Source of the DNA: Botryllus schlosseri
Lineage: Eukaryota
DNA: 64,000 nt
Assembly: GCA_051294905.1 (NCBI GenBank)
Contig: CM119372.1
Location: 13,394,001 to 13,458,000, forward strand
Reading direction: 5' to 3'
Below are positions 13,246-51,651 of this stretch, one piece after another. Position 1 is the stretch's first letter. The number at the start of each line of letters is the position of its first letter. The translations under genes were made by a program, and so were the position numbers. The notes beneath the pieces were generated by a model. It was given only the letters and a program-made list of their open reading frames with translations. It was not told where the DNA came from and searched no databases.

Positions 13246-16200
13246 GCGGGAAACAGTGCGCTATTGAAAAGATCCCCAAGAGTAACGTTTCGTCGACTGA
13301 GTACAATGAGAGTGATGTCATTCACGATATAGGTGAGGGTCGAAATATTGCGCTGTGGGTCGATAATCCAGGATATTACATCGCGCCCCAACGCCCCTAT
13401 TTCTACATCGTTGAAATCTTGGACGAAGTCGTGCATTTTCTCCAAATTAGGAAATTGTTCGTATATCCCGTTGAGTAAAGCGTCCGTCGTTGTGTTGGCG
13501 ATTTCAAGCGAAATGTGAAATATGTTGCTGATAGCAGCGAGAACATCCGGGTCATGGAGTGTCATGTTGTCTTCAGTCAACAACTCATATAAGCTCATCA
13601 CTTCGATGTATAATTCAACGTACGGATTTTCAAACAAATCCAAGTATCCGGTCAGGAATAGTCGGAGTTCAACCAAGAAGTCAGATTCGTTGGAAGCTAA
13701 AGCGCCGATTAACGGTTGAACATGCTGAAAGATGTAAATGACCTCATCCGGAACGTCTATACGACTTGAATTTATTGCAGTTAAAATGACGGTACCGATA
13801 TCTTCACCATTGGCAACACCGCTGAGTGCCAGAAGGATTGTATCAACTCGTGAAGTCACGTTACCTGGCAAACGCTGATAGAACACCATACTGAAAAATT
13901 CAATGAGATTCGTGTACTGCGATGCCGTGTTGTTATTGTTCTCCAGTATCGTGATGATAAGTCTGCTCAGCTCCGTTTCTTGTGCGTTATTTTCAAAATA
14001 TTCTTTAAAAAGTGAAGTGACGTTACTTTCATTCCAACCGGTCTCCTGCAAGTGTTCGAGCAAGCGTGCCAAGCTGATGATCTGCGGTGGAACCGTCATA
14101 TTCAAGCTGCTGAACAGAACTTCGTAGTAGAGAGTGATGTTTTGATAATACAGTGTCATGAACTTGAAAACATTTTCAATTTCATTGCTGTTGTTTGGAT
14201 ACGTTGCGAGAAAATATCCCGGAATGCATTCGAAGTATCGCTCGTATTCAGGAGACAAATCTGCGCCCTTTTCTATCATATCGTTATAGAATGCGTTTGC
14301 ATATGCCCGCGTGAGGTTAGTAGATACGCAGTAATTTGTTTCTATGCGGCGTAGAAGAATTGGTAAGGCAACGTTCATAAGGGTGGTGTCATTGGTCGAA
14401 ATCGTGTCAATTATCTTCACGGCAAATCGAAGGATAGTGTAGATTCTATTTGACGATGACATGTTTCCAATTTGCAATTCCTCCGTCACATAGATGAGGA
14501 CTTCTTTCACAGAGGTGATATTGTTCATGGATATATTATTCGCGACCTCAAGGACGTGCACCACTTCCTTTAGTATATCAATCGCATCGGATGAGATCGA
14601 TACGTTGAAATTTGACAGGATAAGATTCAAATAGTATTGTAATTCCTCGAAGTCGATGGTTTCGTTGTTGGCAAAGACATTCTGCAAGAAAATGTAAAAC
14701 TCGGTGACATTTTGTCCAGGCGTTATGTTTAATGAGTCCAAGTACATTATCGCAATGTCCAAGACAAACGGATAAACCTCGGAAAGATCTAATGTTGCGT
14801 TATTGACGATGACATCCTGTAGTATTAGATACAGCTTCGTTACATTTCCCGACGTAGTAATATTCATTGCCTCCAAATATGCGCTTGCGATGTCAATTAG
14901 AACAGGATAAACCACATTTTCGTTGTTTTTGATAGCGTGAATCAGTCGGATAACACCGCTTGCAATTGTAGTATTCAAACTGTTCAAATACGTAACGGTG
15001 ATGTTGCTAACGCCGGACATTATGTCAGTTTCGTTTTTCCACCAACTTTCTACTAACTGTGCGATTTGTTCGATTACTTCAGCCGGCACGTCAATGATGT
15101 CCAGTTCCACGATTGCATTAAAAATGATAGCAGATACATTAGCGTTGTGTGTTGAGTTACGAATTCCGCTTATGCTGCCAATTAGTTCCATCGCTACCTC
15201 GGCAATACCGGATGGCATTGTGACGTTCAGTCGATTTTCCAAAGCCTGAATGGAGTATCGTAGCACCAGAGAATAAATGTCGCTCTCGTTGCTGTTGATC
15301 GCGTTTGCCAAGTCCAGAATGAAATGCAACATCGGTTCGGGTATCGTGATGTTCGTTTGATCTTGCAGTACTGTAAGTACCCCTTTCAATATCATATTGA
15401 GATTATCCTGACTGTTATTTGTGAGTGAATTACTAATATCGACGATGATTTCGACAAGGGGATTAGAAATCGTCACATTGGCAGATTGGAGGTGGAGTGT
15501 AATTTCCGTGACAATGACCGAGTATATGTCGCTTTCGTTGTTATTGAGAGCATCTCTGATGATGGCGACTGAATTCATGACTTCGAAGACTTCTTCGGAA
15601 ATATTTACGTTCGAGTATTTTGCGAGAAGACGAATGACGTGGATGATTTCGTCGTTCGTTTGATTTTGATTACCCTTAATCGCCGCAGATAGTTCTATGA
15701 CGGATTGAATGATTTCCTTTGGAATGATATTCATGTTCTCAAGGAATGTAATGGTGATATTTACTAGAGGGCCAAAAATATCGCTTTCATTCCGATTCAT
15801 GTAATTGTCGAGCTCCTGAATCAGGTCCATCACATTTGCAGGTATAGTAACATTTATTTGCTGCAAGACAATGACGATATCGTTTAGCAGCTGTGTAGAA
15901 TTATCCGAAGTATTGTCGAAGACGTGACTCAAATTCTTAACAAACATTGCAATGTCTTCTGGTAATGATATGTTGAATTCTTCCATAAATATCATGGTGT
16001 AGTTGGCGACTTTGCTCGGAAAATAAGTCTCATTCCTCGTTATGTCAATTAGTATTTCTACGGCTATTTCGATAACGGGCGTTGAAATTGTAACATTACC
16101 CAGTTCCGCGACTGCCCGAATAGTTTCTTCAAGGACAATGAAATATATGTTGCTATCATTACTCCTGCTCGCAGCAATCAATCGTGATACCAAATGCACG

Positions 16201-50200: not shown

Positions 50201-51651
50201 TCCCAGATTCCCATTCATCAATTGATTGATCAGTTCAGGCATCGACATGATGAGTTTTTCCAGATTGTAGTAATCAGGAATTATGCTGCTCAAATATACG
50301 AACGTTGCATTAAGTGTCAATTCACCGGAGTCAAGTTTGCTAATGAAGTCGAGCAAACCGGCGTCGTTCAATGATCCAAGCTGCTGTAGGTAACGAATTA
50401 TATTTGGAATGTTCTCAATTGATTCCAGATACTGTGACGGGATAGTGGTGTTGAATTGGGAAAGTATTTCACGTATCGCGTTCCCGAATGCCACAGATCC
50501 ATTGGAAGCAAATGAACCGTTGATCTCGTCAAGTAGTTCTTCGAGCTGCGCAGAAGTCTGATTCCCATCCGAGTTCGTCGCGGAAATAACAAATTTTATA
50601 TAATCCTGGATATCTGCGAATGTCATATTCGTTCCCAAGGCATTGACGTCAGATGTGACACTAGAAATGGAATCCTGATACATATTCAAAATGTTAGAGA
50701 CGGTACGAAAGGCTTCATCAAGCTGTACAGGATCTTCGGAAAACATGTATAGATACCTGGGGACGTAATTTATCAATGTGATCCACCCCTCTGACAACTG
50801 TGTATGCGGAGCAACAGCATTCACAAAATTTATGATTGAAGCGCTGAAATTCTGCGATGTAACCGTGGTGTTGCTATACTCCTTTAACAGATTTAATTCC
50901 CAAATGTCCAGCTCCAAACCATCTTTACCTTCGATTATTTGCATTACCATTTGGGAAATTGTATCAAAGACACGGAGCGCGTTAGCGTCCGCTTCTACGA
51001 GGCCGGGAATAATGGTCCAAATGAGTCGCATCAACGAAGATGCCGCCGTCGTGGTATTGGAACTATCAAAGCCGGAAATAGAAGACACGGCGTAGAACAG
51101 AGACTGGTTGAAGGCATCGTAGAAATATTCGTTCTGGATGTATTGCAAAATAAATCCTGGGAGATTTTCAATTAAATGATTGAATTCAGAGGGAGCTGAT
51201 ATGTTGCTATTCTCAAGTAATTGTGAAATCAGTGCGCTTGTCATTTCGTTCTCAGTGTTCAAGATGCTAAAACTATCCAGGAAGACTTTGATAGCCTTTT
51301 CGACTTGAGAAACATTAAGTAAGGCGGTAAGAATGAGGGTATCCAACTTATTTATCACTGCGACTGTGTTTTGTGGAAGAGATTGGTTCGTAGTGCTCAA
51401 GATATTGTTAACCACTTCTTCTACCAGTCTCATATTGTCCAATTCGCCGTTTTTGTTCTGCAAAAACTGTTCGATCGTCCTCGCTGTGTCCTCAGCAAAC
51501 AACTTGATTCCCTGGTCGATGATGTTTGTCGCGTCACCAAGGAAACTATTCAGAATTTGGGCATTTGCTGGCGCCGAGACCGGGAACAGTTGATCGCATT
51601 CTAGCAGATCCTTGTATGCTGTTGAGATGCACGATCCGTAGGTCAAAGTTA
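44262..51651 (-). CDS. Gene B exon 2 (7,390 nt): N-glycosylated repeat region of a 2734-aa predicted GPI-anchored surface protein
   Basis: Uninterrupted 2492-aa ORF; acceptor ttttcttttgacag|TA (phase 1, C+TA = Leu); donor CCAAT|GTGAGT containing the ORF stop; starts LTLTYGSCISTAY...LEC. Confidence 0.93.
45600..50300 (-). repeat. Coding tandem repeat in gene B, 735-741 bp (245-247 aa) unit
   Basis: Gly codon of the YYPGYxYNF-type motif at 50042, 49304, 48569, 47831, 47093, 46358 and 45617; units also share P-x-x-YNL and Y(I/V/T)-x-x-WQ motifs. Confidence 0.92.

Follow-up and report, generated by a model that had tools for sequence, protein, structure and literature searches.

Tandem Botryllus schlosseri genes with a putative split Ly6/uPAR scaffold, probably lengthened by different helical repeats in each paralog

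Proteins of the Ly6/uPAR (LU) family, such as CD59, Lynx1, LYPD8 and GPIHBP1, carry a compact domain of 60–90 residues which, as described in PMC6600238, has the consensus disulfide bonds 1–5, 2–3, 4–6, 7–8 and 9–10, frequently loses bond 2–3, and is defined by an Asn directly after the last Cys. In the same text, the signal peptide lies on a separate exon and the domain on two more exons, with an intron at the tip of loop 2 that is generally of phase 1 (PMC6600238). Here we analyse 64,000 nucleotides (nt) of the Botryllus schlosseri genome (contig CM119372.1, positions 13,394,001 to 13,458,000; the window), which contain a pair of neighbouring genes, A and B. We consider it likely that they are tandem paralogs from a small ascidian family of glycosylphosphatidylinositol (GPI)-anchored, heavily N-glycosylated surface proteins, in which one compact scaffold was lengthened differently in each gene. 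Paralogs are generally known to expand their repeats independently of each other, which by itself is nothing new; spider dragline silk genes are said to be large and single-exon, with higher-order repeats, in-frame tandem amplification in one giant exon, conserved ends, and paralogs with different units. In contrast to the silk genes, the units of A and B are ordered, predicted to be helical, diverged (23–45% identity for the old units), and set inside what appears to be a small disulfide domain.

The window has a G+C content of ~40% and holds two very long stop-free open reading frames (ORFs) on the minus strand, at 13245–26186 (4314 codons) and 44261–51742 (2494 codons). A chance origin was rejected for both (P about 1e-119 and 1e-69), as was an assembly artefact, the repeat units being diverged and gene B being covered by RNA contigs. 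As read from the DNA, A and B are tandem minus-strand paralogs with three exons each and identical intron phases (Table 1), and their spliced models of 4482 amino acids (aa) for A and 2734 aa for B are free of internal stops. The first exons are 33% identical (E 2.5e-10), and tblastn within the window found each gene end in two copies only. For gene B, RNA-type mapping drew on four sequencing runs, among which X24 is an RNA run and X16 and X6 were taken as RNA by guess, intron 2 being without depth. Two joints in all were listed, 43483/44262 and 51651/52762, both GT–AG and both in exact agreement with the introns; each was present in X16 and X6 contigs, and the former additionally in two raw X24 reads. 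The X6 contigs tile exon 2 of gene B with gaps of ~50 bases; no single contig spans the exon, and no joint inside it was listed. Among the variants listed for this exon, 19 of 35 were synonymous and none introduced a stop. Either gene may also have a non-coding 5′ exon, as suggested by pyrimidine-rich AG acceptor-like sites that lie upstream of both start codons on the minus strand (near 53008 and 27070); no joint for such an exon was among the RNA joints listed for gene B.

The scaffold can be read from the cysteines at the protein ends. Exon 1 contributes three, exon 2 starts with GSC-x10-C and exon 3 with C-x4-C-x4-CN, and all eight are conserved in the four full-length proteins. As a pattern match, their order reads as LU Cys 1, 4, 5 / 6, 7 / 8, 9, 10 with the 2–3 bond missing. 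The CN after the last Cys is invariant (4/4 proteins), and in both genes a phase-1 intron, whose junction in B was seen in RNA, separates the Cys read as C5 and C6 and so matches the LU loop-2 intron. One C-terminal half matched Pfam CD59 with an E of 0.023, weaker than the cut-off, and the Atlas feature neighbours all belonged to the LU clan (0.77–0.79), which is a lead only. A compact LU product made by skipping exon 2 was rejected, because joining phase 1 to phase 2 shifts the frame; no such joint was among those listed.

Several observations weigh against this assignment. No intron separates the signal peptide from the first part of the LU domain, a further phase-2 intron lies ahead of C8, and the spacings C6-x10-C7 and C8-x4-C9 are atypical. 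The 60–90 residues are not contiguous, since 704–4259 residues lie between C7 and C8; we therefore class the family as a split LU variant and not as an ordinary member. Pfam and PDB profile searches with the LU halves returned nothing significant, AlphaFold (7-row alignment) left both halves unfolded with a predicted local distance difference test (pLDDT) score mostly under 40, and the RNA mapping covered gene B alone, the exon model of gene A being based on splice signals and homology. In short, the family shares with the LU proteins of PMC6600238 the Cys order, the CN, the phase-1 loop-2 intron, tandem genes and a GPI-type end, and differs from them in its 700–4260 apparently helical residues between C7 and C8, the missing 2–3 bond, C8 and C9 lying 4 apart, the signal peptide in exon 1, and the additional intron. 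On the Cys pattern and intron position, we think it very likely that the ends of A and B are an Ly6/uPAR three-finger domain split by an insert in finger III. This adds to the initial annotation, which had not named the scaffold.

Between C7 and C8, the two proteins are most alike at the margins of the insert. The motifs with which the initial annotation had both exon 2s open were confirmed in the sequence, and its view that these starts are alike holds for the Cys motif; beyond that motif the similarity is weak (local z=1.1, 48 of 300 shuffles reaching the score; global z=2.3, 5 of 300) and becomes clearer once homologs are added. The region it had delimited ended at 50800, which is too short, as exon 2 of B starts at 51651. 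At the other margin, all the motifs quoted for a C-terminal block (C block) were found in both proteins, and the distances from its first Cys to the donor, 1085 nt in A (14330 to 13246) and 1100 nt in B (45361 to 44262), proved exact. The C blocks are homologous, with a local score of 218 compared to 43±7 for shuffled sequences (z=24, reached by 0 of 300 shuffles) and 80 identities in 383 columns. This block is the best-scoring window of either protein (tblastn E 3.5e-13); a whole-protein blastp did not report the A–B pair.

The middle of B is a true array of Cys-free units of ~246 aa, as had been proposed, with seven W anchors spaced 245–247 aa apart, pairwise identities of 30–42%, and one degenerate copy in front. 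None of the W, Y, PG and F positions varies among the units. In hhalign comparisons, which rest on shallow profiles and single-pair E-values, the two halves of the unit are homologous to each other (98%, E 3e-14) and each matches the Cys-bridged C-block head (96% and 94.7%), compared to 3% for that head against the A unit. The resemblance noted earlier between the YYPGYLYNF-type motif and the PG motif of the C block is supported (94.7%, E 5.6e-8), but every B unit contains a pair of PG modules and not a single one.

The middle of A is more heterogeneous than the 210-aa C-x5-C repeat first described, a length which fits five of its 12 units (210–211 aa, about 1050 of about 3900 middle residues), while six are ~245–250 aa and one is 42 aa. 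All units are built from an element of ~42 aa, and autocorrelation shows a 41–42-aa period with harmonics along the whole middle. A hidden Markov model (HMM) seeded on 49 of these elements gave 76 matches of at least 10 bits in A and 0 in reversed A (an in-sample count, with a few overlapping matches), and position-specific element HMMs placed 89 elements, covering 3339 of 3760 residues. Between degenerate flanks, the resulting map has a Cys-free hexamer, five pentamers without element 2, six further hexamers and one element that is duplicated. Judged by their nucleotide identity of 71–91%, the pentamers are recent; their ratio of nonsynonymous to synonymous substitution rates (dN/dS) is 0.25–0.40, and they group together (bootstrap 86) beside the adjacent hexamer. 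These results suggest that the history of A ran from element to hexamer to pentamer.

Four homologs were available for comparison, P0001 (2739 aa, 46% identical to B) and three Styela clava models. Searches for homologs gave one match among 7998 scored candidates and two among 1.84 billion representatives; no homolog of the N-terminal part was found among shorter proteins, nor one of the 874-aa Styela model at near length. The Styela RefSeq models show the same architecture, with the scaffold, eight end Cys, N and C blocks, stalk, tail and a B-then-A tandem order; their records assign neither function nor domain name. XP_039266769.1 (LOC120342139, P0002, 2634 aa, an uncharacterized protein) is B-type. 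LOC120342757 is represented by XP_039267657.1 (P0004, 874 aa) and by XP_039267657.2 (P0003, 3513 aa), which reads both genes as one and contains an internal GPI-type tail and a second signal peptide; it is probably a fused annotation of two tandem genes. As it runs from a B-like into an A-like gene, the tandem order is shared with Styela clava.

In a C-block tree of five sequences, from which P0003 was omitted as a near-duplicate of P0002 plus P0004, A and P0004 separate from ((B, P0001), P0002) with a bootstrap of 100. The insert between C7 and C8 is 4259 residues in A and 704 in this Styela A ortholog; it is 2448 in B and 2446 in the Styela B ortholog. In the middle of the compact P0004 lies a single W/YPG module (65 bits), which scores z=24 with B and z=0.8 with A, while a second stretch is closer to the A elements (z=6.3 with A, 2.0 with B). 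One B-type module with a few A-type elements is the compact form predicted by the idea of independent growth. In the phylogeny of repeat units, which the initial annotation had proposed as a check, each B unit groups with the P0001 unit in the same position (8 of 8, bootstrap 93–100), and no Styela unit joins these pairs. Three of the Styela units group at 89/88 and all six at 79/26 only, and a B plus P0001 clade is not rejected (p 0.47). In the Styela B ortholog, five W/YPG modules are distributed over units that are longer and uneven (periods of about 291 and 397), and there is a private 137-aa repeat; a third, separate expansion is likely there, less firmly than the other two. Despite their different repeats, B and its Styela ortholog have inserts of nearly equal length, P0001 being about 245 aa longer than B; this may be chance or a length constraint.

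We found by profile comparison that the A and B units are not collinear. The ~250-aa A profile matched the B-dimer profile only locally, and the true order of the six elements of A against the B unit was no better than permuted orders, 14 of 60 (global) and 19 of 60 (local) reaching the best true phase, with 60 permutations sampled of the 714 possible. Collinearity of the A and B units, the finding that the initial annotation had named as one that would overturn its proposal, was rejected on this basis. The B-unit HMM reached a maximum of 7.7 bits on A compared to 68 bits on P0004, and no intact W/YPG module was found in A (z=0.8). With the compact Styela A ortholog, these data support the initial proposal of convergent lengthening from different sub-modules, and independent growth of the A and B inserts is, in our judgement, highly probable. 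The tree being unrooted, growth in A rather than shrinkage in Styela is the direction that we infer. Some results temper this view. An HMM of the A element hits B once per unit (8 matches, 10–26 bits, compared to a reversed maximum of 3.9), so the modules are not wholly unrelated and probably have a deep common origin. The comparison included five proteins only, the identity between P0002 and P0004 (33%) equals that between A and P0004, and support for the Styela units as one group fell from 90 to 79/26 under a better model. The higher-order units of A and B thus differ, yet they probably draw on one ancient helix-NxT-P-helix element.

These same results bear on the possibility that the ancestor was already long, the ~250-aa units of A and the 246-aa units of B having diverged beyond recognition from one collinear array and the 874-aa Styela gene having shrunk. 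The unit lengths are indeed strikingly close (245–250 compared to 245–247), a local profile match of 98 columns (90%, E 1.5e-6; reversed control 0.3%) is accompanied by a gapped match of 201 columns (41%), and both the A-like element in each B unit and the lack of an outgroup root would fit. However, a collinear inheritance agrees poorly with the permutation result and the HMM scores; A lacks the Trp and PG signatures, its unit is six like elements where that of B is two PG modules, and the periods of the Styela B ortholog differ from both. We consider a long ancestor improbable. Another possibility is a helical-repeat surface glycoprotein that works like mesothelin, stereocilin or otoancorin, with the Cys-rich ends as two small disulfide caps independent of each other. 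Those proteins are anchored to the membrane by GPI. They are extracellular and predicted to form helical-repeat superhelices, a theme that the predicted structure of A and B shares (PMC2628672). The lack of a significant LU profile match, the unfolded halves in the model and the atypical spacings would also suit separate caps, but the N-terminal part has five conserved Cys and the C-terminal part three, odd numbers that can pair only across the insert, and the terminal CN and the phase-1 intron position fit LU. No mesothelin-family Pfam match appeared, no sequence or fold match to these proteins was found with models of middling confidence, and the abstract of PMC2628672 describes no LU-like ends for them; the likeness is an analogy only, and independent caps are distinctly unlikely.

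The composition of the inserts is relevant to what the repeats do. A has 201 N-glycosylation sequons compared to 63 expected and B 76 compared to 41, A is acidic (D+E 555 against K+R 206), and Ile+Val+Leu make up 33% of A and 29% of B. This hydrophobic content, the invariant positions of the B units, the purifying selection on units and the helical-bundle models would all be expected if the repeats were ligand- or lipid-binding modules whose expansion multiplies binding sites and not length. Nematode polyprotein allergens and insect gut repeat proteins are examples of such helical modules, and polyproteins of cleaved lipid-binding units have regular basic cleavage sites between units. A and B each have two R-x-x-R sites, not periodic and none at unit borders, which argues against regular furin processing; furthermore, no Pfam match to such families appeared, and A has dispensed with the W/PG module altogether. 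We consider binding modules of this kind unlikely. A role of the pair in self/non-self or immune recognition, diversified by repeat turnover, would fit the rapid lineage-specific change in the insert and the frequent role of LU proteins in recognition and their arrangement in tandem clusters (PMC6600238). The listed exon 2 variants of B lean synonymous, however, dN/dS is well under 1, the order of B units is frozen between two species, and there is no cytoplasmic tail, which together make a recognition receptor highly improbable.

The predicted models are helical, with a pLDDT mostly of 60–86 for the C block and 68 for the B unit, and hydropathy reveals no transmembrane segment in the insert. 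Pfam gave nothing at the cut-off for the window proteins or their homologs, PDB sequence searches gave nothing significant, Foldseek with the predicted models gave no match at E≤0.001, and an Atlas search with the B dimer gave no usable match. In the VIA fold search, the B unit reached at best Z 6.1 (65 residues) and P0004 at best Z 7.2 (44 residues), values that are within noise for helical models and show neither difference nor novelty. The modules may represent an undescribed extracellular repeat that matches no Pfam family. A serine/threonine (S/T)-rich stalk followed by a hydrophobic GPI-type tail is seen by eye in four proteins, as part of a pattern with a signal peptide, a small-residue omega site and a spacer but no cytoplasmic part, and A and B are probably GPI-anchored; against this, no 19-residue window of B passes a hydropathy of 1.9, nor does the A tail, and only the tail of P0004 does.

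Returning to a compact scaffold lengthened separately in each gene, we propose the following course. In the scaffold, a signal peptide would precede an 8-Cys Ly6/uPAR three-finger domain whose finger III is interrupted, before the last three Cys, by an all-helical insert; the stalk and the tail would follow. Its compact form, as in P0004, would have had a single W/PG module and a small number of ~42-aa helix-NxT-P-helix elements between an N block and a C block of ~365 aa. After duplication, in-frame tandem copying inside exon 2 would have extended each gene differently: in B, the 246-aa dimer of PG modules would have been copied 7–8 times, and in A, the W/PG module would have been lost and the 42-aa element copied as a ~250-aa hexamer (7 times) and then as a 210-aa pentamer (5 times). 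The insert would form the long glycan-coated arm of a lipid-anchored surface glycoprotein and act as a spacer, barrier or adhesion element. Different lineages fill the insert with different modules, which suggests selection on length or bulk; whether the role is indeed that of a long, acidic, glycan-coated arm in which length outweighs module identity seems to us evenly poised.

If the ends are an LU domain, bond 7–8 would be the sole disulfide spanning the insert, which would make the latter a covalently closed loop of thousands of residues, and the arm would return to its base or pair with a neighbour. A tentative extension, which we hold with some doubt, is that the three-finger domain works as a clasp in which bond 7–8 closes a loop of up to 4,260 residues into a membrane-anchored lariat or hairpin, or in which halves pair between molecules into a covalent surface polymer, the loop having been lengthened at least three times independently (in A, in the B/P0001 lineage and in Styela B) from modules of one new helical repeat fold under selection on reach. 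With inserts of 704, about 2,450, about 2,690 and 4,259 residues in the same finger, the family would form a natural series that reveals how much insertion the LU fold tolerates, and it raises the question of how two halves thousands of residues apart meet during folding. For the evolution of repeat proteins, the pair offers a natural experiment as well, since a compact relative survives and a single 12.8-kb exon still records the stages of element, hexamer and pentamer. A split three-finger scaffold with inserts of 0.7–4.3 thousand residues, combined with that relative and that readable history, may surprise specialists; the significance is limited by the family being lineage-restricted. In a literature search that covered result listings, chiefly of non-subscription papers, we found no published account of the family, nor of any LU domain that a large insert divides in two; ascidian expression or proteome gene lists could name these genes.

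Table 1. Features of genes A and B in the window (minus-strand features, window coordinates)
Feature	Position	Strand	Notes
Gene B exon 1 (coding part)	52762..52966	-	Signal peptide and three Cys read as LU C1, C4, C5; phase-1 donor; from sequence and RNA joint
Gene B exon 2, 7390 nt	44262..51651	-	GSC-x10-C (read as LU C6, C7), N block, repeat array, C block; phase-2 donor; from ORF and RNA contigs
Degenerate first B unit	50393..50992 (ORF aa 251–450)	-	B-unit HMM 72 bits; pairs with first P0001 unit, bootstrap 100/100
Array of 246-aa Cys-free B units (six full, one half)	45431..50305	-	Full unit of two PG modules; all-helical model, pLDDT 68
Gene B shared C block (~365 aa)	44262..45361	-	Opens with C-x34-C PG module
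Gene B exon 3 (coding part)	42874..43483	-	C-x4-C-x4-CN (read as LU C8–C10), S/T-rich stalk, GPI-type hydrophobic tail; from sequence and RNA joint
Gene A exon 1 (coding part)	26761..26971	-	Signal peptide and Cys read as LU C1, C4, C5; phase-1 donor; from sequence
Gene A exon 2, 12832 nt	13246..26077	-	GSC-x10-C, about 89 predicted helical elements of ~42 aa, C block; phase-2 donor; from ORF and element map
Cys-free ~243-aa hexamer of A elements	23301..24026 (ORF aa 721–962)	-	Element order 0-1-2-3-4-5
Five young 210-aa C-x5-C pentamers (hexamer minus one element)	20148..23300	-	61–87% aa identity; element order 0-1-3-4-5
Six older ~245–250-aa C-x5-C hexamers and one extra 42-aa Cys-bearing element	15549..20147	-	23–45% aa identity
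Gene A shared C block (~360 aa)	13246..14330	-	Opens with C-x33-C PG module
Gene A exon 3 (coding part)	12269..12674	-	C-x4-C-x4-CN, S/T-rich stalk, hydrophobic tail; from sequence; Cys invariant across four proteins

The window also contains several repeats outside the coding exons of both genes. At 62161–63789, an inverted repeat of 744 bp, 99.7% identical, carries mirror-image ORFs at 62329–63090 (minus) and 63010–63621 (plus) with a weak GIY-YIG match (E 0.03), and it resembles a Penelope-type retroelement end or a foldback derivative. Partial copies of this repeat, 87–90% identical, lie at 34731–34960 and 36544–36910. A 100-N assembly gap is located at 4466–4565, outside both genes. Copies of a 41-bp unit, 14.5 of them in the core array, form a minisatellite at 5273–6125, and compound 32/33/58-bp tandem repeats occupy 10128–10909. 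Finally, an 89% inverted pair (32989–33199 and 34175–34386) and a 76% direct pair (38411–38714 and 55339–55645) are short dispersed repeats that are probably small mobile elements.

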